A stretch of 64,000 bases of DNA from Arcobacteraceae bacterium (GTDB taxonomy: Bacteria > Campylobacterota > Campylobacteria > Campylobacterales > Arcobacteraceae): NCBI GenBank assembly GCA_048268245.1, contig JBLWVX010000001.1, positions 128,001 through 192,000 on the forward strand, given 5' to 3'. Numbering within the stretch: the first letter of the stretch is position 1; each line of letters starts with the position of its first letter. Positions 31,935 through 63,015 of this stretch are shown one piece after another. The notes below the pieces were generated by a model. The model was not told the origin of the DNA. It searched no databases and worked only from the letters and a program-made list of their open reading frames with translations. Made by a program: the position numbers and the translations under genes.

Positions 31935-31993
31935 TTTTTTACTTTCATATTTAAATAATTAGTTATATTTTATCTTTTTACTCTTATTAGTAG

Positions 31994-33538: not shown

Positions 33539-33592
33539 ATTATAAAATAAGTTTATAGCTTTGTTATAGCCCATAAATAGCTTTAATGTAGC
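33539..33592 (-). promoter_or_regulatory. Promoter with four 11-bp-periodic TAGC boxes
   Basis: Plus-strand TAGC at 33556, 33567, 33578, 33589; minus-strand -10 TATAAT at 33539-33544. Confidence 0.7.
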
Positions 33593-33597
33593 CATAA

Positions 33598-33629
33598 AAA
33601 AAGGGAAGAGTAAAAACTCTTCCCTTTTT
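33598..33629 (-). terminator. Intrinsic terminator of the yajC-secDF operon
   Basis: AAAAAGGGAAGAGT-AAAA-ACTCTTCCCTTTTT. Confidence 0.85.
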
Positions 33630-33649
33630 AAAATCAAAACCAAACTATA

Positions 33650-34618
33650 CTAAACTGTACCTTGCTCGTACATAGCTCTTAATTTATCTTTTTCTTTTTG
33701 TTTTTTTAATTTTTCTGCTTCTTTAGCTCTAAAATCATTTATTGAGAACTTTAACTGAACTAAGAAAGATGCAGCAATAAATATAGATGAATAAGTACCA
33801 ACTACTACACCAATAAGCATTGTAAATGCGAATCCATTGATAATTTCTCCACCAAATAAGTATAAAGTGATAACAACAAAGAATGTTGTTAATGAAGTAA
33901 GAGTTGTTCTTGAAAGTGTTCTACTTACTGACTCATTTACAACCTTATCAAGAACTGTTTCTTTAGATGTTTGTACACCCTCTCTAATTCTATCAAATAC
34001 AATAATGGTATCATTTAGTGAATAACCAAGAATTGTAAGAATTGCTGCTAAGATGTCTAAGTTTACCTCTACACCCACAAGTGCAATAGCTCCTAATGCA
34101 ATAGTAACATCATGTGCTAATGCTAAAATAGAAGCTACAGCAAATCTCCACTCAAATCTGAATGATACATATATTAAGATAACAATAAGAGATAAGCCTA
34201 AAGCCATTAAACCTTTTTCTCTTAATTCATTACCTACTTTAGGTCCAACCATGTCAACTCTTCTTACTTCAAAGTTTCCAGTTGAATCTAAGATTTTATG
34301 CATCTCATCACCAATATCATTTGCTAAGTTAGAAGAAGTACCTGTAATTCTAATCACTACTTCTTGAGGACTACCAAACTCAGTAATAGATGAACCTTTA
34401 TATTTAGTTTCATTTAATACATTTCTGATTTTATCAATAGGAGCTTTTTGCTCATATTGAACTTGAACTAAAGTACCACCAGCAAAGTCAATACCAAAAT
34501 TAAGCCCTTTAGTAAATAGTATTACAAGTGAAGCAATAACAAGAATTGAAGAAATCCCTAAAAAAGGAAGTCTTTTAGCCATAAAATTATGTATTTTATC
34601 TGATTTAAAAAATTCCAT
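33650..34618 (-). CDS. secF: Protein translocase subunit SecF
   Basis: GIDFAGG, VGPKVG.EL, GYSLNDTIIVFDRIRE. Confidence 0.97.
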   Translation of the reverse strand: MEFFKSDKIHNFMAKRLPFLGISSILVIASLVILFTKGLNFGIDFAGGTLVQVQYEQKAPIDKIRNVLNETKYKGSSITEFGSPQEVVIRITGTSSNLANDIGDEMHKILDSTGNFEVRRVDMVGPKVGNELREKGLMALGLSLIVILIYVSFRFEWRFAVASILALAHDVTIALGAIALVGVEVNLDILAAILTILGYSLNDTIIVFDRIREGVQTSKETVLDKVVNESVSRTLSRTTLTSLTTFFVVITLYLFGGEIINGFAFTMLIGVVVGTYSSIFIAASFLVQLKFSINDFRAKEAEKLKKQKEKDKLRAMYEQGTV

Positions 34619-36183
34619 TATTTAACTCCAAACCATTTTTTTAAGTCTTTATCTTTTGAGATTTTATTAGCTAAGGCTTCATAAATACCATGTGTACCTA
34701 AAATAGCTGTTAACATTGAAGCTAAAATACCAATAGAAATAGTAATAGCAAATCCTTTAATAGGACCTGTACCATAAGCATATAAGATTACAGCAACTAA
34801 TAAAGTAGTAATATTTGCATCTAAAATAGCTCTCATTGCATTTGCATAACCATCTTCAATTGCTTTAGCTACTGATACACCTTGTTTTAATAGTTCTCTA
34901 ATTCTTTCACCAATAATTACATTGGCATCAACTGCCATACCTACAGTTAATACAATACCTGCCATACCAGGAAGAGTAAGAGTTGCTCCAAACATCGCCA
35001 TTACTGAAATGATAATAAATATATTTGTTACAAGTGCAATATTAGCAATAATACCAGCTCTTCTATAGTAAACAATCATAAAAATAAATACGATTATAAA
35101 ACCAGAAACTAATGCAATAGTTGAAGCTTTAATAGAATCAGCACCTAAAGATGGGCCAACACTTCTTTTTTCAAGTAATTTTACAGTTGCAGGTAAAGCA
35201 CCACTTCTTAAAGCAATAGCTACATTCCCCGCTTCTTGAACAGTAAAACCACCAGAAATTTGACCACTTCCTCCACCAATTCTTTCTCTAATATTCGGAG
35301 CTGAATAAACTTTTCCATCTAAAACAACAGCTAATCTTTTTCCTACATTTTTACCTGTAAAATCACCAAAAATTCTAGCTCCACTTGAATTAAGTGTGAA
35401 ATTAATAATTGCTTGATTAGATTGATCGAAAGCAACTTGTGCGTCTATTACTTGGCTACCATTTAAAATTGGTATTTCTTTTACTAGATATTTAACAGCT
35501 GCATTTTTAGTATCTTCTAAAATAATATCACCATATTCAGCTGCTTGTGCATCACTCATAGTATATACTTGATCTGCTCTTTGTTCATCAACTGCCATAA
35601 GTTCTAAGTTTGCAGGTTTTGAGATAAGTTCTCTTGCCGCTTTTTCATCTTCTGCTGTTTTAATACCTGGTAACTGAACAACAATATCAGTAGCACCTTG
35701 TCTTACAACAGTAGGCTCTGCTAATCCAAACTGGTCAAGTCTATTTCTAATAGTTTCTACTGCTTGAGATACTGATAAGTCTTTTGTTCTTTCAATTTCT
35801 TCACTTGTTAGTTTTACAGTATAATCTGTATTTACTTTTGAAATTTGTAAACCTTTTATTTTGGCTAACATTTCATCCATTCTCGGTAGTTCATCAGGGT
35901 CTAAAACTGTAAATTTAACAGATTCAGTATCAAGAGATAAGCCATCAATTAATAAATCTTCATCTTCTGCAAAGTATTTAATTGATGTTGCAATTGTTTT
36001 TATTTTTGATGTTACTGCTTCATGTGTATTAACACCTAAAAGCATGTGCAATCCACCTTGTAAATCAAGTCCTAATGAGATTTTTTTACCGCTGTCTGTT
36101 TGCATAAGTGAAGGAATTGAAAAAACAACACCAAAAATAATACTTAAAGCAAATATAATAAGTCTATAATTAAAGATTTTCAA
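34618..36183 (-). CDS. secD: Protein translocase subunit SecD
   Basis: LGLDLQGG, RNRLDQFGLAEP, LRSGALPA, VGPSLG, GMAVDANV. Confidence 0.97.
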   Translation of the reverse strand: MKIFNYRLIIFALSIIFGVVFSIPSLMQTDSGKKISLGLDLQGGLHMLLGVNTHEAVTSKIKTIATSIKYFAEDEDLLIDGLSLDTESVKFTVLDPDELPRMDEMLAKIKGLQISKVNTDYTVKLTSEEIERTKDLSVSQAVETIRNRLDQFGLAEPTVVRQGATDIVVQLPGIKTAEDEKAARELISKPANLELMAVDEQRADQVYTMSDAQAAEYGDIILEDTKNAAVKYLVKEIPILNGSQVIDAQVAFDQSNQAIINFTLNSSGARIFGDFTGKNVGKRLAVVLDGKVYSAPNIRERIGGGSGQISGGFTVQEAGNVAIALRSGALPATVKLLEKRSVGPSLGADSIKASTIALVSGFIIVFIFMIVYYRRAGIIANIALVTNIFIIISVMAMFGATLTLPGMAGIVLTVGMAVDANVIIGERIRELLKQGVSVAKAIEDGYANAMRAILDANITTLLVAVILYAYGTGPIKGFAITISIGILASMLTAILGTHGIYEALANKISKDKDLKKWFGVK

Positions 36184-36260
36184 TCTTAATCCTTAGTAAG
36201 GTTTTTTTGATTTTAAAGATAAAACATGTAAGAAACTTACATGTCTTAAAAAAAAGATTT

Positions 36261-36536
36261 TTAGTCTTCTATAAGTTTAGCTACGAACTCTCTGATTAAT
36301 TTCATTTCAGTTCCATCGCTATTTTTTACTACAAAGTAGTCATCTTCTACTTTAGTAACTTCTACCATTAAGCCTCCATTTGTTACAATCTTATCACCTT
36401 TTTTAAGATTATTAACCATTTCCTTATGCTGTTTAGCTTGTTTTTGTTGTGGTCTTATAATCAAAAAGTAAAAAATTGCAAATAATGCAACAAGGGGTAG
36501 TAATGAGCTTATTAAATCAGCACTTGAACCTTCCAT
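36261..36536 (-). CDS. yajC: Preprotein translocase subunit YajC
   Basis: FYFLIIRPQQK, LKKGDKIVTNGG; upstream of secD. Confidence 0.96.
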   Translation of the reverse strand: MEGSSADLISSLLPLVALFAIFYFLIIRPQQKQAKQHKEMVNNLKKGDKIVTNGGLMVEVTKVEDDYFVVKNSDGTEMKLIREFVAKLIED

Positions 36537-36564
36537 CAAAATTCCTTTTCAAAAGTAGTTTAGT

Positions 36565-37797
36565 ATGTTTTTAGTAAAACGCGATAATTCTAACAAAAAC
36601 TTTATAATAAAAGGCTTCATTACGTCCATATTATTGAGCGCTTTTATATACTTAAGTCATTTTAATATTGAATATTTACTTTTAAATACAGTTTTAGGGC
36701 TTTTAGCTATTTATTTTTTAGTTACAATTCCTAGAAAATCACTTTTTATTACAGGTTTTACAACAGGTATATTTTGGTTTTATTGGATTGGTATATCCCT
36801 CAAATACTATGAGCTTACATACTTAATACCAGTGCTTTTGATTGGTATTGGGATAGTATATGGTTTATTATTTTTACTATTAGGACTAATAAATAATATA
36901 ATTTATAGAGTAATTGCCATATTTGTATTTACTTTTATTGCACCATTTGGTTTTAATTGGATGAAATTTGAACTTTTATTTGTAGATTCATATTTTAGTA
37001 CTACAAAAGAGAGTTTTGCATTAATTTTAGCTGCTGCTTTTATGGTTTCACAACTAAAAAGATTAAAATTTTTAGCTTTAATCCCACTTTTTATTGCTTA
37101 TCAATCTCCACAAGGAGAAATAATTGATAATCCTAATCTTGATATTCATTTAACACAATTTAATATTCCTCAAGATATAAAGTGGAAAAAAGAGAATAGA
37201 AATAAGCTAATAAATAAAAATTTAGATGAAATAGATAAAGCAATATCTTTAAATAAAGACCTTATAGTTTTACCTGAGACTTCAATACCAACGATTTTAA
37301 ACAAGCAAAAAGATTTATTTGATTATCTAAAAGAAAAGTCTTATGAAATTACTATTTTTACAGGTGGTTTATACCTAGAGAATCAAAAAATCTATAATGC
37401 AACATATCTTTTCTCAAAAGGAGAAGTGCAAATAGCAAAAAAGGTGGTATTAGTTCCTTTTGGAGAAGAAATACCACTTCCAAAGTTCTTTGTTGATTTA
37501 ATCAATAATACTTTTTATGGTGGAGCTTCAGACTATGCAAAAGCTTCAATACCAACTGATCTTATAATAGGTGATACAAAAATAAGAAATGCTATTTGCT
37601 ATGAAGCAACAACAGATAAGATATTTGAAAATTTAGCTGATACAAAATACATGATAGCTATCTCAAACAATGCTTGGTTTACACCATCTATTGAACCAAC
37701 ACTTCAAAAATTACTTATGAAATACTATTCTAAAAAGTATGGAGTAACTATCTTTCATGTTGTAAATGGAAGCCAAAATTATATTATAAGACCATGA
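36565..37797 (+). CDS. lnt: Apolipoprotein N-acyltransferase
   Basis: Nitrilase triad motifs VLPET, K.VLVPFGE, ICYE; SNNAWF; N-terminal TM segments. Confidence 0.93.
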   Translation: MFLVKRDNSNKNFIIKGFITSILLSAFIYLSHFNIEYLLLNTVLGLLAIYFLVTIPRKSLFITGFTTGIFWFYWIGISLKYYELTYLIPVLLIGIGIVYGLLFLLLGLINNIIYRVIAIFVFTFIAPFGFNWMKFELLFVDSYFSTTKESFALILAAAFMVSQLKRLKFLALIPLFIAYQSPQGEIIDNPNLDIHLTQFNIPQDIKWKKENRNKLINKNLDEIDKAISLNKDLIVLPETSIPTILNKQKDLFDYLKEKSYEITIFTGGLYLENQKIYNATYLFSKGEVQIAKKVVLVPFGEEIPLPKFFVDLINNTFYGGASDYAKASIPTDLIIGDTKIRNAICYEATTDKIFENLADTKYMIAISNNAWFTPSIEPTLQKLLMKYYSKKYGVTIFHVVNGSQNYIIRP

Positions 37798-37810
37798 TTT
37801 AAATAAAAGA

Positions 37811-39214
37811 TTAAAGATATTTTTCTTTAATCTTTTCTAAAATTTTCTCTTTTTCTAGATTCTCATCTATTTGTAAATCCATAGTATAATCCAAAATTCT
37901 TTTAAACTCTTTTGAGGGTTTTAGTCCTAAAGCTATTAAATCTCTTCCTTGAACTAAAGGTTTTAAAGCTTCATTTTCTATATTTAACTCTTTAGCTTTT
38001 TCTAAAAGCCAAGAAGTAGCTTTTGGACACTTCTCCTTATCTTTTATATCTCTTCCTAAACAATCAGCTAAACATACTAAACATAAATCTTCAATGTTTA
38101 CTTTTAATGATAACCTTTTTACAGCTTTTAATGATGATTCTGCAAGATATAATTGAAAAGGAGCTAAATGGTTCTTCACTAGTGGTGTAATTAAATCTAT
38201 GAACTTTTTTTCATTAGTAAGTCTTGATAAAAAACTAATAGTTGGCTCTATACCTAAAGCTTCGTGTTTATGAGAAGTTACTCTTCCCTCATCTGTAATT
38301 TGAGTACAAAATGGCTTTCCTAAATCATGACAAAGTATCGCATAAAATAGATATAATTTTCTGTATTCATCTTCTATATTAGATTCTTCTAAAATTTTAG
38401 CTAACTCATCTACAGTCATTAATGTATGAATCCACACGTCACCCTCTGGATGATACTCATTATCTTGTATACATCCCTTTAAAGCTTCTAGTTCTGGAAA
38501 ATGTTTTAGACAACCCAAACTATCTAAAAGCTCTAGTCCAATTGAAGGCTTTGAAGATTTTAAAAATAGTTTTTTAAACTCTTCATAGACTCTTTCTTTA
38601 GGTAACTCTTCTAAATCACCTCTTTGAACCATTTGTTTACATAGTTGTGAACTCTTTTTATCTAAGCTTAAATCAAACCTAGCACAAAACTGAATAGCCC
38701 TATATACTCTTAATGGATCTTCAATAAAAGTGTCATCTTTAATATGTCTTAGAACTTTATTTTCTAAATCTTTTATTCCATTGTTTGGGTCTATTAATCT
38801 TTTTTCAAAAAAATCATAGGCAATTGAGTTTATAGTAAAATCTCTTCTTAAACTAGCTTTATCATATTTTAAATTTTTATCATTAGTAACTTCAAAACCT
38901 CTATGTCCAGAAGCTACTTTTTTCTCTATCCTTGCAAGTGCAAAGTCAAAATCATATGAATCAATTTTTAAAGTTAGTACTCCAAAAGATTTACCAACTT
39001 GCTTTATATTTCCAAAACGCTTTAGTATTAACTCTACGTCATTTAAAGTTTCAATACCAAAAAGTTCTACATCATAATCTTTACAGGGAATTTCTAAAAG
39101 GGAGTCTCTAACACAACCACCAACAAGAAGAGGCTTTATATTCTCTTCTTGTAGGGCTATAAGAATTTGTTTTAATACCTTAGGTATATTAATCGTTGTT
39201 GTAGTGGTGAACAT
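37811..39214 (-). CDS. cca: CCA tRNA nucleotidyltransferase with HD domain
   Basis: VGGCVRD..DYD, RRDFTINS, EDPLRVYRA, YHPEGDVWIH, CHDLGK; ATG at 39214 preferred (short overlap with mscS). Confidence 0.9.
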   Translation of the reverse strand: MFTTTTTINIPKVLKQILIALQEENIKPLLVGGCVRDSLLEIPCKDYDVELFGIETLNDVELILKRFGNIKQVGKSFGVLTLKIDSYDFDFALARIEKKVASGHRGFEVTNDKNLKYDKASLRRDFTINSIAYDFFEKRLIDPNNGIKDLENKVLRHIKDDTFIEDPLRVYRAIQFCARFDLSLDKKSSQLCKQMVQRGDLEELPKERVYEEFKKLFLKSSKPSIGLELLDSLGCLKHFPELEALKGCIQDNEYHPEGDVWIHTLMTVDELAKILEESNIEDEYRKLYLFYAILCHDLGKPFCTQITDEGRVTSHKHEALGIEPTISFLSRLTNEKKFIDLITPLVKNHLAPFQLYLAESSLKAVKRLSLKVNIEDLCLVCLADCLGRDIKDKEKCPKATSWLLEKAKELNIENEALKPLVQGRDLIALGLKPSKEFKRILDYTMDLQIDENLEKEKILEKIKEKYL

Positions 39215-40037: not shown

Positions 40038-40087
40038 ATTGTTCCTTTAAATAATTTATGAAATTATAACATAAATAAGTTTAAAAA

Positions 40088-41794: not shown

Positions 41795-41811
41795 TAACTG
41801 TTCCCTATCTT

Positions 41812-44007: not shown

Positions 44008-44017
44008 AAATATTACC

Positions 44018-44320: not shown

Positions 44321-44344
44321 ATTATTTCCTTTTATTTCTTTTTA

Positions 44345-46146: not shown

Positions 46147-46180
46147 AGTCAAAGATTATATCTAAAAGTTTGTAATTTTC

Positions 46181-48100: not shown

Positions 48101-48121
48101 GAAAACATTTTAACATAAGTT

Positions 48122-48982: not shown

Positions 48983-49049
48983 TTTAAAATTGTACCATTT
49001 ATTAATAAAATTTATGTACAATAACAAAAAAACTTACAAGAGGATAAAC

Positions 49050-49520: not shown

Positions 49521-49521
49521 T

Positions 49522-49917
49522 ATGAAAAGAAGAGAACCTTTAGGTTTAGACTTAACCCCAATCATAGATGTAGTTTTTATACTACTTTTATTTTTTATAG
49601 TAAGTTCTGTATTTAAAAAAGATGAACTGGCTTTGATACTTGATTTGCCAAACTCAAATGCTAAAGAGTTAAAAGTAGATGAAGAACAAGTTTTTATAGA
49701 ACTTAGTTCAAATAAACTTGCAATAAAAGGAATAGAAGTATCTTTTCAATCACTAGAAGATAATCTAAAAGCTATTGAAAATAAACATAAAGCTGTATTA
49801 GTTAGAATTGATAAAAAAGTTGAATATCAACGAGTTGTGAAAGTTTTAGATTTACTTCAAAAATATGATTTAACAAATCTAGCACTTGTTACAAGTCAAG
49901 AAGAAAAAAAGGATTAA
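49522..49917 (+). CDS. exbD: ExbD/TolR biopolymer transport protein
   Basis: DLTPIIDVVFILLLFFIV, RIDK.V.Y..VV.VLD. Confidence 0.9.
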   Translation: MKRREPLGLDLTPIIDVVFILLLFFIVSSVFKKDELALILDLPNSNAKELKVDEEQVFIELSSNKLAIKGIEVSFQSLEDNLKAIENKHKAVLVRIDKKVEYQRVVKVLDLLQKYDLTNLALVTSQEEKKD

Positions 49918-50297
49918 TTTCCCTCTTCTTCTTTTTTTAATTGCTCATACTCTTCATCTGTAAAAATTCTAGACTTAGTTATAAACTGATAACCCATATC
50001 TATTTCAAGAGAAAAAGAGTTACCAAAAGCTGATTTTTCTTCTCTTACATCAATTGTAATAAAAGAGTGTCTAAAATATTCGAATTGGTCTTTATCTATA
50101 AAAAACTCACATCCACATATTTCACCAAGCTTTACATTTCTACTTGGCACATAAAAATCATCTTTTGCATAACACATAGGAGCTGTTCCATCACAACAAC
50201 CACCACTTTGGTTAAATACTAATTCACCATGTTCTTCTTGAAGTTTTTTGATTACGTCACAAGCTTCTTTTGTAACGTCTACTCTTTTTATTGCCAT
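49914..50297 (-). CDS. DUF779 family protein
   Basis: HG.LVFNQSGGCCDGTAPMCY, FSLE; usual partner of AldB-type aldehyde dehydrogenases. Confidence 0.92.
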   Translation of the reverse strand: MAIKRVDVTKEACDVIKKLQEEHGELVFNQSGGCCDGTAPMCYAKDDFYVPSRNVKLGEICGCEFFIDKDQFEYFRHSFITIDVREEKSAFGNSFSLEIDMGYQFITKSRIFTDEEYEQLKKEEEGN

Positions 50298-50322
50298 AAT
50301 TTATCCTTTTTATATATAAAAC

Positions 50323-50365
50323 AAAAAAGGTACAGAAGGAAAAGGGAGAGAGAACCTTCTGTACC
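50323..50365 (-). terminator. Terminator after aldB with 15-nt C/U-rich loop
   Basis: Minus strand: GGTACAGAAGG-TTCTCTCTCCCTTTT-CCTTCTGTACC-TTTTTT. Confidence 0.8.
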
Positions 50366-50400
50366 ACAATAAGGGGTTTAATTAAGTTTAAAACTATCTA

Positions 50401-51897
50401 TTAAAAGAATCCTAAAGCATCTTTGCTGTAAGAAGTTAAGATATTTTTAGTGTGTCTGTAAGAGTTTAACATCATCATGTGAGTTTCTCTACCGATACCT
50501 GATTTTTTGTATCCACCAAATGATGCATGTGATGGGTATAAGTGGTAACAATTCACCCATACTCTACCAGCTTCAATTCCTCTTGAGAATTTATGTAATT
50601 GGTGAGCATCTCTTGACCATACACCTGAACCTAATCCGTAGATAGTGTCATTTGCGATTTCTAATGCTTCTTCTTCAGTTTTAAATGTAGTTACAGATAA
50701 TACAGGTCCAAAGATTTCTTCTTGGAAGATTCTCATTTTATTGTGACCTTTGAAGATTGTTGGTTGAATATAGAATCCATTTGGATATTTTTCAGACTCT
50801 AAGATATCTCCACCAATTAAACACTCAGCACCCTCTTCTTTACCAATTTTAATGTACTCAGTAATTTTCTCTTTTTGGCTTAATGAACATTGGGCACCCA
50901 TCATGTTTTCAGTATCTAAAGGATCACCTAATTTAATAGCTTTAACTCTCTCTAATACTCTTGCCATAAATGGCTCATAGATATCTTCATGGATTAATGC
51001 TCTTGATGGACAAGTACAAACTTCACCAGAGTTAAATGCGAATAATACTAAACCTTCAATTGCTTTATCAAAGAACTCATCATCAGCATCCATAATTGAA
51101 GGCATAAAGATATTTGGAGATTTACCACCTAATTCTAATGTTGATGGAATAATGTTTTCAGTTGCATATTGCATAATTAACTGACCAGTTGTAGTTTCAC
51201 CTGTAAATCCAACTTTTTTGATGTCTGGGTGAGTTGATAAGTGTTTACCAATTTTTCCACCTGCACCATTAATAATGTTGATTGTACCTGCTGGTAATAC
51301 CTCTGCAATTGTTTCCATTAATACTAAGATTGACATTGGAGTAGCTGATGCTGGTTTCATAACTACACAGTTACCTGCTGCTAATGCAGGAGCTAATTTC
51401 CAAGCTGCCATTAATAATGGGAAGTTCCAAGGAATAATTTGAGCTACAACTCCGTATGGCTCATATACTTCTTGAGAAATAGTGTTTTCATCTAAATCTG
51501 AAACAGTTCCAGACTCAGCTCTAATTACAGATGCAAAGTATCTGAAGTGATCTACAACTAAAGGAACATCAGCATTTAATGTTTCTCTAATAGTTTTACC
51601 ATTATCTAAAGTTTCAGCAATTGCTAATGCTTCTAAGTTACCTTCAATAGCATCTGCTATTTTGTTTAATAAATTACTTCTTTCTACTACAGAAGTATGC
51701 TTAAATGATTCAAAAGCTTTCATAGCAGCTGCAACTGCTGCATCAACATCTTCTTCATTTGATCTAGGAATTCTTGTTAAAGTTTCTCCATCTACAGGTG
51801 AAATATTTTCAAAATACTCTCCACTTTTTGGAGCAAGCCATTCTCCACCAATAAAGTTCTCATATTGAGCTTTGTACTGCGGTTTACTATAAATCAT
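50401..51897 (-). CDS. aldB: NAD-dependent aldehyde dehydrogenase (AldB/ExaC/AcoD type)
   Basis: IIPWNFP, FTGETTTG, TLELGGKSPN, GEVCTCPSR, QEEIFGPV, FGGYKKSGIGRETH. Confidence 0.92.
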   Translation of the reverse strand: MIYSKPQYKAQYENFIGGEWLAPKSGEYFENISPVDGETLTRIPRSNEEDVDAAVAAAMKAFESFKHTSVVERSNLLNKIADAIEGNLEALAIAETLDNGKTIRETLNADVPLVVDHFRYFASVIRAESGTVSDLDENTISQEVYEPYGVVAQIIPWNFPLLMAAWKLAPALAAGNCVVMKPASATPMSILVLMETIAEVLPAGTINIINGAGGKIGKHLSTHPDIKKVGFTGETTTGQLIMQYATENIIPSTLELGGKSPNIFMPSIMDADDEFFDKAIEGLVLFAFNSGEVCTCPSRALIHEDIYEPFMARVLERVKAIKLGDPLDTENMMGAQCSLSQKEKITEYIKIGKEEGAECLIGGDILESEKYPNGFYIQPTIFKGHNKMRIFQEEIFGPVLSVTTFKTEEEALEIANDTIYGLGSGVWSRDAHQLHKFSRGIEAGRVWVNCYHLYPSHASFGGYKKSGIGRETHMMMLNSYRHTKNILTSYSKDALGFF

Positions 51898-51970
51898 TTT
51901 TCATCCTTTTTATTATTTTAATTATTTTGAGAAAATTATTTGCTATGCCATAATTTTTCTGCTTGATGAA

Positions 51971-52024
51971 AGTTTACACGAGAAATATAGCGTGAATTTA
52001 GCCTAAGTATAGCCTGAATATAGC
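51971..52024 (-). promoter_or_regulatory. aldB promoter with four 11-bp-periodic TAGC boxes
   Basis: Plus-strand TAGC at 51988, 51999, 52010, 52021; minus-strand -10 TAAACT at 51971-51976. Confidence 0.75.
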
Positions 52025-52116
52025 AATGTAGTTTTTTGACACAAAATCCCTAAAAATGGTGCTTTTATTACCTTTTTTTTCTTTGTTTTTTTTGATTTAT
52101 TTGCTACAATTTTTTT

Positions 52117-54033
52117 ATGAAAACATATAACTATACAATTAAAGACGAATCTTTAGAACTGTTAATAGACTTTGACACTTTAAAAAAAGAAAAAAACATA
52201 TTAATACAAATTTTTTGTGGTCAATCAAAAGAAATTATGAAAACTATTCTAAATAAATTGAAAAAAGAACTTCCTCAAGCAATTTGTATTGGCTCATCTA
52301 CTGATGGAGAGATAGACAATGCAAATATTTCTACAAAAAGAACAGTAATATCTATATCAGTATTTGAAAAAACTCAATTAAAAGTAGCCTATGTACAAAA
52401 TGACAACTCTTATATAAATGGTCAAAAACTAGCAAAGCAGTTATGTAATGAAGATACAAAACTACTTATTACATTTACTGATGGTGAAACTACAAATGGG
52501 GAAGAGTTTTTAAAAGGTATAAGCTCTATTAATAGTAAAGTAGTTGTAAGTGGTGGAATGGCAGCAGATAATGCAACCTTTAAAGAAACATTTATTTTAT
52601 GTCAAGATAAGATTATTACAAAAGGTGCAGTTGCTGTATCTCTTAACTCTAAAGATTTAAAAATTTGTAATGCTTATAACTTTAACTGGTCACCAATAGG
52701 AATAGATCATGAAATAGAAGAAGTTAAAGATAATAGGGTTTATAAAATCTCAGGATTAACACCTTTAGACTTTTATGAAAAATATTTAGGTGAATATGTT
52801 GCAAAAGCCTTACCTGCAACAGGAATAGAGTTTCCTTTAATTGTACAAAAGAATGGAATGCCACTAGCTAGAGCTGTAATTCAAAAACATAGTGATGGAA
52901 GCTTAAGTTTTGCAGGTAATTTAAATAAAGGGGATATTGTAAAGTTAGGCTTTGGTAATGTTGAGCTTATAATGAACAACCCTTTACAATCTTTATTTAA
53001 TAAGTGTTCAGTAACAGGTGTTGAGTCATTTTTTATCTATACTTGTATGGCAAGAAGAAGATATATTCCTGATTTAATTGATATTGAAATTAAGCCATTT
53101 TCAGAAATTGCAAATACATCAGGATTTTTTACATATGGAGAGTTTTATCATAATGATGGGCACAATGAGTTATTAAACCAAACATTAACAGTTGTTGGAC
53201 TTAGTGAAAATAGTGAAATAACTTATGAAGAAAAAGAAGAAGTAGAAGAAAAAAATGACAATGATGATATAAGTGAACAAGCAAGAAGCTTACAAGCTTT
53301 AACACATCTAATTGAACAATCTTCAAAAGATTATAGTAATCAATCTAAGAAGTTAGAAGAAGGAAATAGATACGCTCAAAATTTGCTTGAGTCACAAAAA
53401 CAGTTTTTAAAATATACAATTCATGAAACAAATACTCCCCTTTCAATTATTATGGGGAATATTGACATGTATGAAATTGAGCATGGAAAAAACAAATATT
53501 TATCTAATATTGAAGTTGCTATGAAAAATGTTTTTAGTATTTACGATGATTTAAGTTACTTAGTAAAAAAAGATCATGTAAATAAAGCAACACATGAAAT
53601 AAACTTAGTTGATTTTGTAAGAAGTAGAATTGAGTTTTTTACTCAAACTGCCCTAAAATTTAAATCAACACTAAATTTTATTCATAATATTGATGAAATA
53701 AATATAAGTTTCAATGAGATTAAACTTCAAAGAATAGTTGATAACAATCTTACAAATGCAATTAAATATACATTACCAAATGAAACTATATATGTAAAGC
53801 TTATATATAGAAATAATGAGTGTGACTTTATAATTGAGAGTCGTTCAGTTCAAATACTAGAACCTCAAAAGATTTTTGAAGAGTATTATCGAGAAGAAGA
53901 ATCAAAAGATGGTTTTGGACTTGGACTAAATCTTGTAAAAAGAATTTGTAGTGAAGAAAATGTTGGAATAAAACTAGAGTCTGGTGAAAACTGGGCTTCA
54001 TTTACTTATACATTTAAAGGAATTGAAAAATGA
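52117..54033 (+). CDS. Cytoplasmic FIST-domain sensor histidine kinase
   Basis: FIST motifs IGSSTDGEI, SGGMAAD, WSPIG, EFPL, YTCMARR, GFFTYGEF...LLNQT; H-box HETNTPL, NAIKY, GFGLGL; no TM segment. Confidence 0.9.
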   Translation: MKTYNYTIKDESLELLIDFDTLKKEKNILIQIFCGQSKEIMKTILNKLKKELPQAICIGSSTDGEIDNANISTKRTVISISVFEKTQLKVAYVQNDNSYINGQKLAKQLCNEDTKLLITFTDGETTNGEEFLKGISSINSKVVVSGGMAADNATFKETFILCQDKIITKGAVAVSLNSKDLKICNAYNFNWSPIGIDHEIEEVKDNRVYKISGLTPLDFYEKYLGEYVAKALPATGIEFPLIVQKNGMPLARAVIQKHSDGSLSFAGNLNKGDIVKLGFGNVELIMNNPLQSLFNKCSVTGVESFFIYTCMARRRYIPDLIDIEIKPFSEIANTSGFFTYGEFYHNDGHNELLNQTLTVVGLSENSEITYEEKEEVEEKNDNDDISEQARSLQALTHLIEQSSKDYSNQSKKLEEGNRYAQNLLESQKQFLKYTIHETNTPLSIIMGNIDMYEIEHGKNKYLSNIEVAMKNVFSIYDDLSYLVKKDHVNKATHEINLVDFVRSRIEFFTQTALKFKSTLNFIHNIDEINISFNEIKLQRIVDNNLTNAIKYTLPNETIYVKLIYRNNECDFIIESRSVQILEPQKIFEEYYREEESKDGFGLGLNLVKRICSEENVGIKLESGENWASFTYTFKGIEK

Positions 54034-54689
54034 AAATATTACTTTTAGAAGATGATATTATGTTAAATGAGATGATTACAGAATATTTAACTTCAACTGG
54101 TCATTCTATTACTAATACAACAAAAGGTGACGAGTGTCTAAATATTTTAGAAGAAGAAAAGTTTGATTTATTAATACTTGATATAAATGTACCAAATATT
54201 GATGGATTAACTGTTTTAGAGCAATTACATGAAAAGAAAAGAATGATACCAACTATATTTATATCAGCACTTATTGATATTGAAGATATTGATAGAGCCT
54301 TTAATATAGGTTGTCATGATTATCTAAAAAAACCTTTTCACTTAAGAGAGCTAACACTTAGAATAAATAAAATTCTAAAAACAAATATTGCTCCACAAAA
54401 ACATAAAAGGTTATCAAAAAACTATAGTTTTGATGCAGAGACTATGACTTTATATTTTAATAATGAGCCTCATATCTTACCTAAAAGACAACTTCAAATT
54501 ATTGAATTACTAGCTCATAATAGAAGCTTAGTTGTACAATACGATATGTTTAGAACCTATGTTTGGAATGATGATTTTATAGACAATGCGACAATTAGAG
54601 CAGAAGTAAATAGAGTAAAAAAAGTTTTAAAAGAAGACTTTATTAAAAATATTAGAGGAAGTGGTTATATGGTTGAAAGACCAAACTAA
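54030..54689 (+). CDS. OmpR/PhoB-family response regulator
   Basis: LLEDD, LDINVP, DYLKKPF; winged-helix C-terminus IKNIRGSGY; overlaps the kinase stop. Confidence 0.93.
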   Translation: MKILLLEDDIMLNEMITEYLTSTGHSITNTTKGDECLNILEEEKFDLLILDINVPNIDGLTVLEQLHEKKRMIPTIFISALIDIEDIDRAFNIGCHDYLKKPFHLRELTLRINKILKTNIAPQKHKRLSKNYSFDAETMTLYFNNEPHILPKRQLQIIELLAHNRSLVVQYDMFRTYVWNDDFIDNATIRAEVNRVKKVLKEDFIKNIRGSGYMVERPN

Positions 54690-54698
54690 CCCTTACTT

Positions 54699-55568
54699 CT
54701 AAAACTTAATAGATACATAAAAGCTTAAATCAAACTCATTATCATCACTTAGAAAGTTGTTTTTTCTATACTCCACATAAGATGGTTTTGTTGTTGTTTC
54801 AAACTCACTTCTAGGTAACCATTCATGATAAACCCAATGAATAAACTTTAAAACATCCCCATGTACTCCTTGCAAATCAAATCTAGCATAAACTCCATCA
54901 GCTATTTTAAAGTCAGGAAGTCTATCACTTTTTACCTCTTCCTTTGTTTCAAGACAAGCAATATATTGACAATCATTTAAAGGAGTTATTGAAGGGTTAT
55001 CATGAAAAAGCGCAATCTCTTTATACTCTTTTATATCATTTGATAATCTCCAAACTTGCATTTTCTGCCACGCTTGTTTTATATTTATGTTATAACCCCT
55101 ATTTCTAATATAGTATGCTTTTCTAAAAGGCATCTTTACAATGGTTGGTGTTATTTCATTAAAATTAGCTTTTGACTCCATGGCTTTGGGTGACTGTTGT
55201 AAAATATTGTTAGAGTATTCTTTATATCCACCCTTTTTCCATTGTTTTGGAGTCATTTCAAATCTCTCTTTAAAAGTTTTAATAAAAGATGATTGAGAGG
55301 AGTATCCACACTCATTTGCAATTTCAGATATTGTTGAATATTTATTTGTAAGAAGTAAATTAGATGCTTTTTGTAATCTAATAGATTTGATACTCTCATA
55401 AATATTTTTTCCAAATGCTTCTTTGAATATTCTATGCATATGAAATTTACTAATATCTAAATCAATACTAAGCTCTTCTATATCGATGTTTGTTTCAATA
55501 TGAGTATAAATATAAAACATTATATCATTGGCTATTTTTGTTCTTTTTTGTAGTGTCTCTTTTTTCAT
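54699..55568 (-). CDS. AraC-family regulator with C-terminal GyrI-like domain
   Basis: SKFHMHRIFK..FG, IA.ECGYSSQSSF..FK..F..TP; HDNPSITP...CQY.AC, IY.EWLP.S-like; ATG at 55568. Confidence 0.9.
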   Translation of the reverse strand: MKKETLQKRTKIANDIMFYIYTHIETNIDIEELSIDLDISKFHMHRIFKEAFGKNIYESIKSIRLQKASNLLLTNKYSTISEIANECGYSSQSSFIKTFKERFEMTPKQWKKGGYKEYSNNILQQSPKAMESKANFNEITPTIVKMPFRKAYYIRNRGYNINIKQAWQKMQVWRLSNDIKEYKEIALFHDNPSITPLNDCQYIACLETKEEVKSDRLPDFKIADGVYARFDLQGVHGDVLKFIHWVYHEWLPRSEFETTTKPSYVEYRKNNFLSDDNEFDLSFYVSIKF

Positions 55569-55708
55569 AAGATAGATTATAGCACAAATAAAATATAAAA
55601 GTAGCACTAACAAACAATTTTAACAGCACTTAAAAAGAAGAATTATTTCTGAATTTTTCATACAATAACTACAATTCAAATATAAGTAAGTATTTTAGGA
55701 AGAAAATT

Positions 55709-56365: not shown

Positions 56366-56376
56366 ATTTAAATCTA

Positions 56377-57510
56377 TCAAGCTTCTAAAAATGAAATAGA
56401 ATTTTTTCTATTTCTGTAAAAAATCTTTTGATCGCTATAAGTTATACTATCTTGGATTTTTTGCGTAACAACTGCATGGTCAGGTGATTTAGAACACACA
56501 GGATCTGCAGCATTCATCTCTCCTGTTAGAGCAAAGGCTTGGCATCTGCAACCGCCAAAGTCTTTGTCTCTTTCATCACAAGTACGACAAGGCTCTTTCA
56601 TCCAACTATCACCTCTAAAATAATTAAAGGCTTTTGAATCATACCATACTTCTTTTACAGAGTTTTCTTTTACATTTGGAAAATCTAAAGGTAAAGTATT
56701 TGCTGTATTACATGGAAGTGCAACCCCATCAGGATTGATAGTTAAAAAAGTAGTACCCCATCCATTCATACAAGCTTTTGGTCTATCAGCAAAATAATCA
56801 GGTACAACTAAAAATACTTTCATAGCATCATCTTTTTGTCTATACTCATTTACTTTTGCTTTTGCTTCATCTAATTGCTCTTTTGAAGGAAGCAATGCAT
56901 TTATATTTTTTAATGCCCAACCATAATATTGAATATTTGCAATTTCTAAATAATTTGCCCCAAGAGTTTCAGCAAATTCAATAATCTGCCCTACTTGATG
57001 AATATTTTGTCTAGTAATACAAGTATTAACTATAAGTTGAAGTCCTGCTTCTTTTACTTCTTTAGCAAAAGCAATTTTTTCTTTATATGAATTTTTATTG
57101 TTAGTAATTAAAGTCATAGTATTTTCATCATGAGATTGAATACCTAACTGTACTGTTTTAAGGCCTGCATCTTTTAGTTTTTTTACTATTCCTTTTGGAG
57201 CACCAACACCTGATGTGATTAAATTAGTATAAAACTTTAAATCATTTGCTTTTTGAACTATATCAACTATATCTTTATTTAATAAAGGCTCTCCACCTGA
57301 AATACCAAGTTGAACAGCACCAAGTTCTCTAACCTCATCCATTACTCTAAACCAATCATCTTTGCTCATAGCATCTTTTGTATTTACAAAATCAAGTTGA
57401 TTATAACAATATGAACACTCTAAAGGACACTTATGAGTTAATTCTAAAAGTACCCATAAAGGGGGCTTTATATCTAGTTTCTCATTATTGTTTTTATCAT
57501 TAATCGACAT
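56377..57510 (-). CDS. pqqE: PqqA peptide cyclase (radical SAM/SPASM)
   Basis: ELTHKCPLECSYC (CxxxCxxC), SGGEPL, KACMNGWG, MKEPCRTC...DFGGCRCQA. Confidence 0.96.
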   Translation of the reverse strand: MSINDKNNNEKLDIKPPLWVLLELTHKCPLECSYCYNQLDFVNTKDAMSKDDWFRVMDEVRELGAVQLGISGGEPLLNKDIVDIVQKANDLKFYTNLITSGVGAPKGIVKKLKDAGLKTVQLGIQSHDENTMTLITNNKNSYKEKIAFAKEVKEAGLQLIVNTCITRQNIHQVGQIIEFAETLGANYLEIANIQYYGWALKNINALLPSKEQLDEAKAKVNEYRQKDDAMKVFLVVPDYFADRPKACMNGWGTTFLTINPDGVALPCNTANTLPLDFPNVKENSVKEVWYDSKAFNYFRGDSWMKEPCRTCDERDKDFGGCRCQAFALTGEMNAADPVCSKSPDHAVVTQKIQDSITYSDQKIFYRNRKNSISFLEA

Positions 57511-57769
57511 ACTGCACCCACTTTCTTTCAAATGCTTCATTAAAAAACGCTTCTATATCTTTTTCTAAACCAGACATTTCAAACTTTTTTTCTAAAGTTT
57601 CTACTATCTCATTAAAACTTTTTGTTCCATCACACTGGTTCATAATTTCACCAGCACTTTGATTTAACTGAACCATACCTTCAGGATACAATAATACAAA
57701 ACAGTCTTGTGCTTTTTCAAATTGTAATTGAAAGTGATTATTCACTACAATTAATTTTTCTTTGTGCAT
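57500..57769 (-). CDS. pqqD: PqqA-binding peptide chaperone
   Basis: [18 protein letters not shown]...CDG. Confidence 0.95.
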
Positions 57770-58496
57770 CTTCTACCCCTTCTATATTAAAGTATGGAGG
57801 TTGTTTTAATTCATATGCTAGATATAAAGCATCACACATAGTCCATAAAATATCTAATTTAAATTGTAATATTTCACAAGCTTTACTTTGTAGTTCAACT
57901 GTATTAAACTCTTCTAAAGTTAATGATAATCCATGTTGGACATCTCTTCTTGCTTCACTTAATCTTTTTTGGAAATATCTTAAACCTTTTGGTTCAATCC
58001 AAGGATAATTATCAGGCCAAGTATTAAGTCTTTGTTGATGAATTTCAGGAGCAAACATCTCAGTTAAAGATGACATTGCAGCCTCTTTCCAAGGTCTTTG
58101 TTTTGCAAAATTTATATATGCTTCAACTGCAAACTTAACAGATGGTAAAACATATTTATGAGAAATTAAGTCCTGCTTATTTAATCCAACAGCTTCACCT
58201 AATTCAAGCCAAGCTTCAATTCCTCCACCAACACTATCATGGTCAATAATTCTATCTATCCACTTTCTTCTATCTTCTAAAGGAGGATTATTTGACATGA
58301 TTGCAGCATCTTTAATAGGAATTGCTGTTTGATAATAAAATCTATTTGCTACCCATCCTTGAATCTCTTCTTTTGTACATTCACCTTTATACATTCTAAT
58401 ATGAAATGGATGATGTATATGATACATCTTACCCATAGCTCTTAATTTTTGTTCAAACTCATCTTTTGAAAGTAATTGGTCAATTTTTTTAGTCAT
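57738..58496 (-). CDS. pqqC: Pyrroloquinoline-quinone synthase
   Basis: [41 protein letters not shown]. Confidence 0.96.
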
Positions 58497-58512
58497 AATA
58501 TTCTCTCCTTTA

Positions 58513-59430
58513 TTATATTTCTATACTCATACCATCATAAGAAACTTCAATTCCATGTGAAATAAGCTCCTTATACTCATCACTACTCTCATCTAAGATA
58601 GGATTTGTATTATTTATATGAATTAGTATTTTTCTTGGTTTTTCTAAACTATCTAAAACTTTGATAAGTCCCTCTTCTCCACTTAATGGAATATGTCCCA
58701 TATCAGTTCCAAGCTTATTTGAAAAGTTTCCTTTTATCATTTCATCATTTGTCCATAATGTTCCTTCTATTAAAAGAACATCTGCATTTCTCATTTCTTC
58801 AAATACATGGTCTTCCATAACACCAAGTCCAGGTAAATAAAATAGTCTTTTTCCTGTATTTTTATTTACAACAGTTATTCCTATATTATCACCCTTTCTA
58901 GGTTTATCTCTATACTCTGAGTATGGAGGTGCATTTGAAATTAATGCATGGGCATAAAACTCATAACTAGGCATTACAGGAATTTCAAATTTTGTAGTTG
59001 AATCTGGTAAGATTTCATGCCAGGCAGTTCCTCCACCATCCCAATGTTTTAGCATTTTCATAGTAGGAAATGATGTGTTTAATTCTTCATTTACTTCTTT
59101 TGTACAGTAAATTTGATGAGGACATCCCTCTCTTAACATAAGTAGACCTGTTGTATGGTCAATTTGTGCATCATTGAAAACAATAGCTTTTATTTTTGTT
59201 TCTCTTTTTTTAGTTGGGTGTAAAAAAGGGGAATTATGAATTTGCTCTAAAATATCTGGTGAAGTGTTAAATAAAACCCAGTTTTCACCATCTTCACTTA
59301 TAGTAATAGAACTTTGTGTTCTTCTTTTAATAGTTTCTTTACCTTCTCTGTAACCCTTACAGTTATCACAGTTACAGTTAAACTGAGGAAGTCCTCCTCC
59401 TGCACCTGATCCTAAAACTTCTATTCTCAT
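58513..59430 (-). CDS. pqqB: PQQ biosynthesis protein B
   Basis: [45 protein letters not shown]. Confidence 0.96.
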
Positions 59431-59443
59431 AATCTTCCCTTAA

Positions 59444-59488
59444 CTCTTTTTATAATTAAGTCTATTTTAGACTTAATTATAAAAAGAG
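59444..59488. repeat. Perfect 21-bp inverted repeat upstream of the pqqB RBS
   Basis: CTCTTTTTATAATTAAGTCTA-TTT-TAGACTTAATTATAAAAAGAG. Confidence 0.85.
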
Positions 59489-59513
59489 CAAACTAGCCGA
59501 AACTAGTTTACTC
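59481..59513 (-). terminator. Intrinsic terminator between pqqA and pqqB
   Basis: Minus strand: GAGTAAACTAG-TTTCGG-CTAGTTTGCTC-TTTTT. Confidence 0.8.
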
Positions 59514-59523
59514 AAATTAGGTT

Positions 59524-59598
59524 CTACTCGTTACAAATATACATTGTTACTTCAAAACCAAATCTATTATCTACAAACATAGGTGTTTCCCATTTCAT
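59524..59598 (-). CDS. pqqA: PQQ precursor peptide PqqA (MKWETPMFVDNRFGFEVTMYICNE); not in ORF track
   Basis: Manual translation gives 24 aa with W..P...D.R.GFEVTMY (E-x-x-x-Y); AAGGAGG RBS upstream; directly before pqqB. Confidence 0.97.
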   Translation of the reverse strand: MKWETPMFVDNRFGFEVTMYICNE

Positions 59599-59634
59599 AA
59601 CAATTACCTCCTTTGTAAGATTTTTGTGTTCAAA

Positions 59635-61425
59635 CTACTTATGTAATTTGAACACGTGTACTGAACCACCTTGGTTTAAAAGCTTAACAGCTTTTGCAAC
59701 TTCACCACCCCATAAAGGAACGGCTCCACCCCAACCAGATACTACAGCAATATATTGCTCACCATTTTGCTCCCAAGTAATAGGAGAAGAAACGATTCCA
59801 GATCCAACATTAAATGAGTATAACTCTTTACCCGTTTCATCATCTAATGCTAAAAGTTTACCTTCTGGATTACCTGTAATTACTAAACCACCAGCAGTAG
59901 TTAAAACTCCACCCCATAATGGTGCTTTGTTTTTATAAATCCACTTAATTTTTCCAGTTACAGGATCAACAGCTTTGATAGCACCAATGTGATCTTCGTA
60001 AATAGGTTTAATAGTAAATCCAGCACCTAAGTATGCTGCACCTTTTTTATAAGAAACAGGTTGATTCCAAATATCCATTCCCCACTCATTTGCAGGAACA
60101 TAGAATAATCCAGTTTTTTGTGAGTATGCCATTGGATTCCAGTTTTTCCCACCTAAGAATGAAGGTACTGAGAATACAGATTTACCTTTTTTCCCATTTA
60201 CAGGAGCTCCAGGTCTATTATCTTCATTTACTATAGGTCTACCATTTTCATCAATTCCTTTAGCCCATGTGATTTTATCAACAAAAGGAGTAGATCTGAT
60301 GTATTTACCATTAACTCTATCTAAAACATAGAAGAATCCATTTTTATCAGCAGTAGCACCGGCTTTTACAACATTTCCATTTTCATCTTTGTAATCAAAT
60401 GGTATAAATTCAGCCATACCATCGTAATCCCATCCATCATTTGGAGTAGTTTGGTAATGCCATACAACTTTACCAGTATCAGGATTTACAGCAACTCTTG
60501 AAGCAGTGTATAAGTTATCACCTTTTCTTAAGTGAGAATTCCAAGGTGCAGGGTTTCCAGTTGGAACATAAATTAAGTCTGTTTCAGGATCGTAAGTTAC
60601 ACCATTCCATGGAGCACCACCACCATGTTTCCAAGTATCACCTTCCCAAGTAGCATTTAAAGTACCAGTAATACCATTTTCTTTACCATTTAAGTATCCC
60701 ATATGTCCTTCAACCATTGGTCTAGTCCATATTAATTTACCTGTATTTGGGTTTCTAGCCTCTACTTTACCAACAACACCAAATTCACCACCAGATACAC
60801 CAGTAATTAACATATCTTTTACGATAAGCGGAGCAGCTGTAAATGAGTACCCATCTTTATACTTAGCAATTCTTTTTTTCCATTTAACTTTACCAGTCTT
60901 TCTATCAAGAGCAACTAGTTTTGCATCAAGTGTTCCAAAAATAACTAAATCACCATATAATGCAGCACCTCTGTTAATAACATCACAACAAGGTAAAATT
61001 GCATCAGGAAGTCTTGCATCATATTGCCATAACTCTTCACCAGTTAAAATATCAATAGCAAAAAGTCTAGAGTAAGAAGCAGTTACATACATAACTCCAT
61101 CTTTAACTACAGGTTGAGACTCTTGTCCTCTTTGTTTTTCCCCACCAAAACTAAAGTTCCATACTGGAACTAAATCTTTAATTGTGTCTTTGTTGATTTG
61201 AGTTAATGTTGAGTATCTTTGACCTTTTGGTCCTAAACCATAACTAACTACATCACCAGGTGTTTTTGCATCATTTACGATTTCATCATATGTAACTGGT
61301 GCAAATGATGGTTTTGTAACTTTTGTTATGCTATTATTTTCTGTGTTGCTAGACATAGCACATCCACTAATTAGTGCAGCTAGTGTAACGGCAACTGCAC
61401 TAGTTAGCAATCTATTCTTATTCAT
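59635..61425 (-). CDS. pedH: Type I PQQ-dependent alcohol dehydrogenase, lanthanide-dependent PedH/ExaF type, predicted lipoprotein
   Basis: Vicinal C146-C147 (PCCDVINRG), E214 (SGGEFG), [10 protein letters not shown]333-Y-D335-[12 protein letters not shown]; lipobox ISG-C22. Confidence 0.88.
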
Positions 61426-61477
61426 CTTCTCTCCTTCTTAATTTTGATAACAAACCTGAAAAATTTGTCTGAAAAGA

Positions 61478-61509
61478 AGTATACATAAGAAATATAGCCT
61501 CAGTTTAGC
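61478..61509 (-). promoter_or_regulatory. pedH-like promoter with two TAGC boxes
   Basis: Plus-strand TAGC at 61495 and 61506; minus-strand -10 TATACT at 61478-61483; closely resembles the aldB promoter. Confidence 0.72.
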
Positions 61510-62287: not shown

Positions 62288-62290
62288 CTT

Positions 62291-63013: not shown

Positions 63014-63015
63014 GA

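Follow-up and report, generated by a model that had tools for sequence, protein, structure and literature searches.

Promoters with 11-bp-spaced GCTA boxes most likely form the regulon of a FIST-domain kinase and OmpR-type regulator in an Arcobacteraceae genome

We analyzed a stretch of 64,000 nucleotides (nt) of an Arcobacteraceae bacterium, here called the window (C1:128001-192000 in a genome of 2.68 Mb, 57 contigs and 28% G+C, labelled G000), in which promoters of genes for alcohol and aldehyde oxidation carry direct repeats of the word GCTA ahead of the -10 hexamer. Our main finding is that this shared architecture is far beyond chance, and that about ten promoters of the genome most likely form an undescribed, conventionally built regulon of the OmpR/PhoB-type response regulator encoded at 54030-54689. 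Judging from the clustering and conservation of the sites, it is quite probable that the boxed promoters are targets of one two-component system, whose regulator would activate transcription at sites resembling the pho box.

The architecture was recognized at three minus-strand promoters of the window: those of aldB, of a PedH-like alcohol dehydrogenase dependent on pyrroloquinoline quinone (PQQ-ADH), and of a distant xdhC-like gene. In gene sense they read ...GCTAtattcagGCTAtacttagGCTAaattcacGCTAtatttctcgtgTAAACT, GCTAaactgagGCTAtatttcttatgTATACT and GCTAcattaaaGCTAtttatggGCTAtaacaaaGCTAtaaacttatttTATAAT, respectively. The period between GCTA boxes is exactly 11 bp at all sites listed, and the offset, counted in gene sense between the G of the last (proximal) box and the first position of the -10, is 15 nt; the distance of 17 reported for the plus strand in a preliminary description of this DNA is the same interval. 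All box and -10 coordinates of that description were confirmed, together with the period and the equal offset at the three promoters, and the close alignment that it claimed between the aldB and PQQ-ADH promoters was recovered (the 33-nt strings at 51970 and 61477 agree at 27 of 33 positions). Its proposal that one promoter architecture links three genes holds for these three and is too low as a total, at least nine promoters sharing it. The distal PQQ-ADH box touches the stop codon of the ABC-2 permease gene, and the xdhC-like promoter sits directly behind the secF terminator. An Rfam scan of the whole window gave 0 matches; the GCTA repeats are therefore not part of a known RNA.

The window contains 4 copies of the pattern GCTAWA-N5-GCTATA, a pattern taken from these same sites; in 100 dinucleotide-shuffled versions the count was 0.01 +/- 0.10 and never as high as 4. 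When both strands of the whole genome are considered, GCTA-N7-GCTA is found 48 times, as against 6-30 for nine other spacers of the same codon phase, and N7 is the sole enriched spacer within its phase class. TAnnnT stands at offset 15 in 15 of 44 promoter-proximal pairs versus 0-6 at each of 24 other offsets; the background for this offset is 2.3% of all 16377 GCTA in the genome. Strict matches to GCTAWA-N5-GCTATA number 11 in the genome and those to its reversed control 0, nine of the 11 falling within 36 kb (C1:161.5-197.2 kb), where the kinase and regulator are also encoded. Nine sites were used to build a 20-nt matrix, which when scanned over the 2.68 Mb gave 13 hits of at least 19 bits, the next best reaching 17.5 bits; the 13 are the nine promoters, extra box pairs of aldB, and the candidates C12:37184 and C10:73904. 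The scan for GCTA-N7-GCTA ahead of a -10 that the preliminary description had suggested thus finds an architecture confined to a small, mostly clustered promoter set, and the motif is not common at unrelated promoters, with about 11 places in 2.68 Mb.

At nine promoters a TAnnnT follows GCTAWA-N5-GCTATA at exactly 15 nt from the proximal G, and when all pairs are listed and aligned their consensus is GCTAAAyTCAgGCTATAA-N9-TAnAnT. The proximal box is GCTATA in all nine matrix sites, while the distal boxes are GCTAAA or GCTATA. Beyond the first three, six members were found, five of them just past the window in the rest of the ped-like cluster and one unlinked (Table 1). Two further sites are less secure: the one at C12:37184 precedes a Pyr_redox_3 gene, its boxes are kept in G001 and G003, and its membership is uncertain; the one at C10:73904, before the gene of a 113-amino-acid (aa) FeS_assembly_P protein, has one mismatch (GACTA) and TATTAT at offset 15, and is a candidate member only.

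Conservation was followed outward from the kinase, which has close relatives in Arcobacter, Aliarcobacter and Poseidonibacter. Of 28 loci found via the kinase, 26 have an aldB promoter in which four boxes precede a -10, usually TAGAAT, at an unchanged offset; the two loci without a site have kinases only 41% and 52% identical. None of the four boxes is missing from any of 23 distinct aldB promoters in relatives, although the third is GCTT in some; conservation is highest in the GCT of each box and in the -10 (TAgAaT, with the offset unchanged), whereas the spacers vary. The kinase/regulator pair adjoins aldB-DUF779 in all 8 relatives compared, which represent 8 genera, and in each the aldB promoter beside the pair has boxes and, at offset 15, a -10. 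Four relatives (G007, G019, G017 and G004) have only aldB-DUF779 at the pair, with no PQQ cluster within the 25-35 kb around it, and still keep the boxes; this points to aldB as the core target. In the other four (G021, G022, G010 and G024), sites also stand before PQQ-ADH, transporter, binding-protein and cytochrome genes.

The xdhC-like and Pyr_redox_2 members are conserved as well. In G001 and G003 the xdhC-like gene lies just after secF, behind four boxes and TATAAT at offset 15; G022 and G057, of another genus, show this arrangement after secF too, with different spacer letters and a gene whose protein is 33-41% identical. The Pyr_redox_2 ortholog has a canonical site in G002, G024, G119, G123 and G130, which makes four genera when G000 is counted. 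Strict matches at G010 C1:363550, G007 C8:112185, G003 C1:242086 and G017 C1:2665277, which come without the offset or a downstream gene, were treated as chance.

We also compared the distribution of motif and regulator over 121 genomes of the family, G000 included, taking E <= 1e-100 (about 72% identity) as the ortholog threshold and GCTAWA-N5-GCTATA-N9-TAnnnT as the pattern, with the reversed pattern as control. A regulator ortholog is present in 59 of the 121 genomes, the pattern in 62 and the control in 0. In a table that is descriptive and not a test, 54 genomes have both, 5 the regulator only, 8 the pattern only and 54 neither; that is, the pattern occurs in 54 of 59 genomes with the ortholog versus 8 of 62 without. 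One genus (g10) has the regulator in 2 of 12 genomes, and the pattern in exactly those 2. In all five regulator-only genomes a relaxed site lies no more than about 2.1 kb from the regulator gene, and one genome (G005) with both paralogous regulators and no ortholog has 0 pattern hits. The preliminary description had put forward the adjacent OmpR-type regulator as the controller, a proposal that gains support from the clustering of sites around its gene, the aldB boxes in 8 of 8 relatives, the 54/5/8/54 table and genus g10.

Several observations weigh against this assignment. The 121 genomes are kin, so that co-occurrence among them does not count as independent evidence; the threshold for orthology was chosen after a gap in the scores had been seen. 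Seven of the eight genomes with the pattern and without the ortholog have a single hit, and the five such hits examined have the inner letters AATGCTAT or ATTGCTAT, like the motif of a paralog. The eighth (G086) has 4 hits, one of them beside a regulator-like stretch (C15:393250-395979) with six in-frame stops (5 TGA, 1 TAA) and intact boxed promoters nearby; this stretch may be either a decaying regulator or the product of assembly errors. Within our genome, the xdhC-like site has the lowest matrix score (19.2 bits) and inner letters that deviate from the consensus, and the C12:37184 site keeps its boxes within the genus and not its -10 offset. Finally, the genome encodes two paralogous regulators, 64% and 56% identical to the one at 54030-54689, at least one of which seems to work through GCTA repeats with an identical offset, and cross-talk with the paralogs is possible.

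The proposed controller and its kinase are encoded by genes that overlap by 4 nt. The kinase has no transmembrane segment (top Kyte-Doolittle 19-residue window 1.11), no receiver or Hpt domain in Pfam, and a weak full-length likeness to the NosP model (63.2 bits, cutoff 450). The regulator has the acceptor Asp in LLILD51, an LKKP motif and a C-terminal winged-helix domain; at 95 bits against a cutoff of 296 for the PhoB equivalog model, it is not a PhoB equivalog. The exact 9-mer TGCTACAAT, an extended -10 ahead of the pair, is found in 23 of 27 rows (the window and 26 relatives); within positions 52101-52116, what separates it from the ATG is a run of T, with no Shine-Dalgarno sequence. This suggests that the kinase/regulator mRNA is leaderless and made from an extended -10 promoter without boxes of its own orientation. 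No LuxR/GerE domain was found among the 37 proteins of the region that were scanned.

Table 1. Boxed promoters and associated genes (positions are those of the window unless a contig is given)
Feature	Position	Strand	Remarks
aldB promoter boxes	GCTA x4, 51988..52024 (starts 51988/51999/52010/52021)	minus	11-bp period, read in the sequence
aldB -10 hexamer TAAACT	51971..51976	minus	15 nt from G of proximal box
PQQ-ADH promoter boxes	GCTA x2, 61495..61509 (starts 61495/61506)	minus	
PQQ-ADH -10 hexamer TATACT	61478..61483	minus	offset 15
xdhC-like promoter boxes	GCTA x4, 33556..33592 (starts 33556/33567/33578/33589)	minus	
xdhC-like -10 hexamer TATAAT	33539..33544	minus	offset 15
Beta-propeller/ATP-binding cassette (ABC) operon promoter	C1:192005-192036		boxed; 30-61 nt past window end
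Divergent promoter pair	C1:192.6 kb		one serves 138-aa protein, the other PQQ-system binding protein and DUF302 gene
Divergent promoter pair	C1:197.2 kb		NMT1-type ABC transporter and DUF411 gene versus cytochrome c550 PedF operon
Unlinked Pyr_redox_2 flavin oxidoreductase gene	C9:46460-47665		canonical boxed promoter
Sensor histidine kinase	52117..54033	plus	Pfam FIST_N, FIST_C, HisKA, HATPase
OmpR/PhoB-family response regulator, putative box binder	54030..54689	plus	Pfam Response_reg 89.8 bits, Trans_reg_C 39.5 bits
Extended -10 TGCTACAAT of kinase/regulator operon	52101..52109	plus	7 nt before ATG
aldB, ExaC-like nicotinamide adenine dinucleotide (NAD) aldehyde dehydrogenase	50401-51897	minus	Pfam; NCBIfam ExaC 828.6 bits, cutoff 900
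DUF779 gene	49914-50297	minus	with aldB spans 49914..51897
PedH-like PQQ alcohol dehydrogenase	59635-61425	minus	Pfam; TIGR03075 783 bits
pqqB, C, D, E	56377-59430	minus	after PQQ-ADH; whole block 56377..61425
ABC-2 permease, ABC ATPase, PQQ-associated beta-propeller (pedCBA-like)	61505..63975	minus	Pfam; TIGR03866 502 bits
XdhC-like gene	32537..33508	minus	weak XdhC_C: Pfam 31.1 bits, cutoff 29.7

We propose the following mechanism. The soluble FIST-domain kinase (52117-54033) would phosphorylate the regulator, and the phosphorylated regulator would bind the GCTAWA direct repeats, 11 bp apart, as head-to-tail dimers, with two boxes at most promoters and four at aldB and the xdhC-like gene. 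Placing the -10 at -12 to -7 would put the boxes at about -38 and -27, and the extra boxes of aldB and the xdhC-like gene at -49 and -60. The boxes would then replace a missing -35, the regulator acting as a class II activator that aids RNA polymerase at promoters with a -10 only. The predicted regulon would have aldB-DUF779 as its universal core and would further comprise the pqq genes and the PedH-like PQQ-ADH, the pedABC-like transporter, the 138-aa protein, the PQQ-system binding protein, the second ABC transporter, the cytochrome c550 PedF operon, the xdhC-like gene and the unlinked flavin oxidoreductase gene; we propose that it unites periplasmic alcohol oxidation with cytoplasmic aldehyde oxidation. 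Binding by the regulator, activation rather than repression, and the transcription starts are all what we infer from the sequence.

The two paralogous regulators bear on how specific such a system could be. The 64% paralog belongs to a second FIST-kinase/regulator pair (C3:95816-98385, minus strand, kinase of 635 aa), and the 56% paralog to an sCache-kinase/OmpR-type regulator pair at C1:34.8-37.0 kb. Beside the sCache pair, the word TGCTAC-N5-ATGCTAT precedes the DUF4212-SSF and pta genes with a -10 at the same 15-nt offset, and a like pair of boxes precedes a DUF485-SSF (ActP-like) gene. From the genes that it precedes, this second motif family looks like a carboxylate/acetate uptake regulon of a paralog. 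Its sites are at 4125, 9074 and 16311 of C1:33001-51000 and also at C2:12375 and C3:91440, with a -10 at the 15-nt offset at 4125, 16311, C2:12375 and C3:91440. It seems that the 15-nt geometry is a property of the regulator subfamily, with the flanking letters giving specificity. About 4-5 kb from the C3 pair, a GCTA-repeat site precedes an MFS_4 gene, and an AraC-type gene lies there as well.

These paralogs raise the question of whether the boxes are real operators that another protein binds, be it one of them or the AraC/GyrI-like regulator encoded at 54699-55613. The AraC-type gene adjoins the regulator gene here and in G022, G010 and G004, but it is absent from the regions examined in 5 of the 8 relatives that keep the boxes (G021, G024, G007, G019 and G017), and we rejected it as the binder. 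A paralog would have in its favor the 64% and 56% identities to the regulator and, near the 56% paralog, promoters with GCTA repeats and a -10 at the same 15-nt offset. The sites associated with paralogs differ in their flanks (TGCTAC-N5-ATGCTAT), however, and the genome with both paralog types and no ortholog (G005) has no hit; moreover, G022 and G024, which are without the 63-68% paralog type among the matches, keep the xdhC-like site and the oxidoreductase site, respectively. On balance we consider another binder decidedly unlikely. A different alternative keeps the adjacent regulator and makes it a repressor, which would occlude the -35 region until the signal relieves repression. The sites would indeed overlap the RNA polymerase contact region, about -38 to -21, and some OmpR-family proteins repress from positions overlapping the -35 region. 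Yet the consensus at the -35 position matches TTGACA at 3 of 6 letters at most with spacers of 16-18 bp, and hence the promoters look activator-dependent, while every member has the same phase and the same distance of 15 nt, a constraint that repression would not require. For sites arranged in this way, the authors of the work on PceP, an OmpR-family regulator of Sulfurospirillum, likewise argue for activation in the part of the source used here (PMC7755780), and we judge repression to be unlikely.

It remains to consider whether periodic boxes are generic to AT-rich Campylobacterota promoters, or whether three promoters resemble one another by chance. Campylobacterota promoters are said to show periodic upstream signals and weak -35 elements. 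Both traits are touched on for the phylum in the portion of the PceP report that we used (PMC7755780), but a generic signal would fit poorly with only about 11 matching places in 2.68 Mb, with shuffles that give 0.01 per window, with a reversed control found in 0 of 121 genomes, and with the absence of any match from 54 of the 62 family genomes without the regulator. Such an explanation is already contradicted by the genome-wide counts and is extremely improbable. We therefore retain activation by the regulator at 54030-54689 as the preferred reading.

The genes behind the boxed promoters belong together by content. The ped-like set comprises the ExaC-like enzyme and matches to TIGR03075, TIGR03863, TIGR03866 and PedF TIGR04494. 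The best solved relative of the PQQ-ADH is 6zcw (850 bits), which we take to be PedH, ahead of 1flg (711 bits), presumably the calcium enzyme. Its motif is WDYDG, as compared with WDFDG in 6zcw and WDFSG in 1flg, and it carries D-x-D, that is, an extra Asp two residues past the catalytic Asp. This arrangement is a mark of lanthanide-type PQQ alcohol dehydrogenases, and the enzyme is probably of that type. In G022 (C1:355001-375000), two PQQ-ADH genes, 53% and 75% identical to that of the window, each have a boxed promoter (sites 14167 and 18667), and the two may represent a calcium/lanthanide pair controlled by a single regulator. The PedF operon (C1:197251-200183) encodes cytochrome c550 PedF, an SBP_bac_3 protein, SoxYZ (a SoxY-SoxZ fusion) and a metallo-beta-lactamase-fold protein, which places a sulfur-carrier protein within an alcohol-oxidation operon. 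The divergent ABC operon at C1:197.2 kb ends with the DUF411 gene, which is metal-binding-like.

Some observations concern single members or lineages. The XdhC-like protein scores 36.8 bits with NCBIfam XdhC_rel_AOR (cutoff 350), and about 600 bp downstream of its gene (31935-32536) hold no open reading frame (ORF) of at least 60 aa (one of 48 aa) and no Rfam match. In G002, of the same genus, the four-box promoter after secF is kept and the xdhC-like gene is gone (C12:308001-316000, site 4919); an ORF of 575 aa, about 320 nt from this site, comes next on the same strand, and a different contig carries the nearest xdhC-like gene (34% identical). A canonical site is also found in one genus (G113 site 2621; G072 site 2251) ahead of an ORF of 659 aa, which has no homolog in G000 and looks like a lineage-specific regulon member.

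The kinase being soluble, its signal is expected to be cytoplasmic, and our guess is that alcohol or aldehyde metabolism yields it as a product; an aldehyde-related cue is guessed because aldB is the universal target. More specifically, we tentatively suggest, as a rather improbable idea, that the FIST domain of the kinase senses alcohol/aldehyde metabolism in the cytoplasm, for example acetaldehyde or the resulting redox state. If this were true, the fusion of FIST and kinase would serve as a 'Rosetta stone' for Pseudomonas ped clusters, in which a NosP-like protein and a kinase are separate (PP_2663-PedS1, PA1975-PA1976); the FIST proteins of these clusters would then report alcohol oxidation and not only nitric oxide. 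It would also be the first FIST kinase with an output defined enough, through a compact regulon and the aldB promoter as read-out, to identify a FIST ligand.

With this regulon, Arcobacteraceae gain a defined regulatory circuit for PQQ-dependent, and probably lanthanide-dependent, alcohol oxidation, and the poorly understood FIST sensor domain is tied to a simple, testable output. The circuit also has predicted members that annotation alone would not tie to alcohol use, namely the flavin oxidoreductase (four genera), the xdhC-like gene, the 138-aa protein and the second ABC transporter. The preliminary description called the regulon undescribed, and in the literature, surveyed in part, on Arcobacter and PQQ, lanthanides or PedH, on two-component systems for ethanol in Arcobacter, and on FIST kinases with aldehyde dehydrogenase, we found no description of the circuit. 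Taken as a whole, the sites and their distribution argue for a new, well-supported regulon of a conventional kind, the promoter design itself being conventional.

That design is familiar from E. coli PhoB, where two 11-bp direct repeats, the pho box, stand in for the -35, a short and constant distance ahead of the -10, and a head-to-tail dimer of this OmpR/PhoB-family regulator activates transcription. The boxes described here are alike in design and differ in their word (CTGTCAT for PhoB, GCTAWA here), as do signal and regulon. The closest precedent appears to be PceP, which we liken to the present regulator by the description of its sites and not by orthology. According to the part of the source used here, electrophoretic mobility shift assays show PceP binding to CTATA repeats with a gap of six that overlap the -35 (PMC7755780), and the boxes in our genome fit the description of a CTATA word (consensus CTATW) at an 11-bp period over the predicted -35 position. 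As described there, the PceS/PceP system also comes from the same phylum, has an OmpR-family regulator, serves several promoters of one gene region and is proposed to work by activation. The differences, within the same part of that source, are that PceS is a membrane kinase with seven helices whereas the present kinase is a soluble FIST kinase; that PceS/PceP governs tetrachloroethene respiration rather than alcohol and aldehyde oxidation; and that the outer repeats (N17) are counted by its authors as the pair bound by PceP whereas adjacent GCTAWA boxes are the conserved unit here (PMC7755780).

In gene content, the nearest systems are the ped/exa clusters of Pseudomonas, with which the present cluster shares homologous PQQ-ADH, PedF, PedABC-type parts, a PQQ-system binding protein, an ExaC/PedI-like aldehyde dehydrogenase and pqq genes. 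Their regulators, as far as covered by the parts of two sources used here, include ErbR/AgmR (PedR1), PedS2/PedR2 and YiaY/PP_2683 (PMC12997753; PMC6115532). LuxR-type activators there work in a multi-level cascade of hybrid kinases, according to the portion of the first source at hand (PMC12997753), in contrast to one classical kinase with an OmpR-type regulator here, so that the two circuits would be built quite differently. A FIST module recurs in both, since the Pseudomonas ped cluster contains a NosP-like FIST protein, PP_2663, co-cistronic with a soluble kinase, in the same partial account (PMC12997753). NosP-NahK (PA1975-PA1976; PP_2663-PedS1) thus resembles the present pair in placing a FIST sensor module and a soluble histidine kinase inside an alcohol-oxidation cluster, and as described there it consists of separate proteins, with a hybrid kinase that feeds HptB and Rsm and a link to nitric oxide and biofilm (PMC12997753). 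Unlike NosP-NahK, the system of Arcobacteraceae has its FIST module fused to a plain HisKA/HATPase kinase with a DNA-binding partner of its own.

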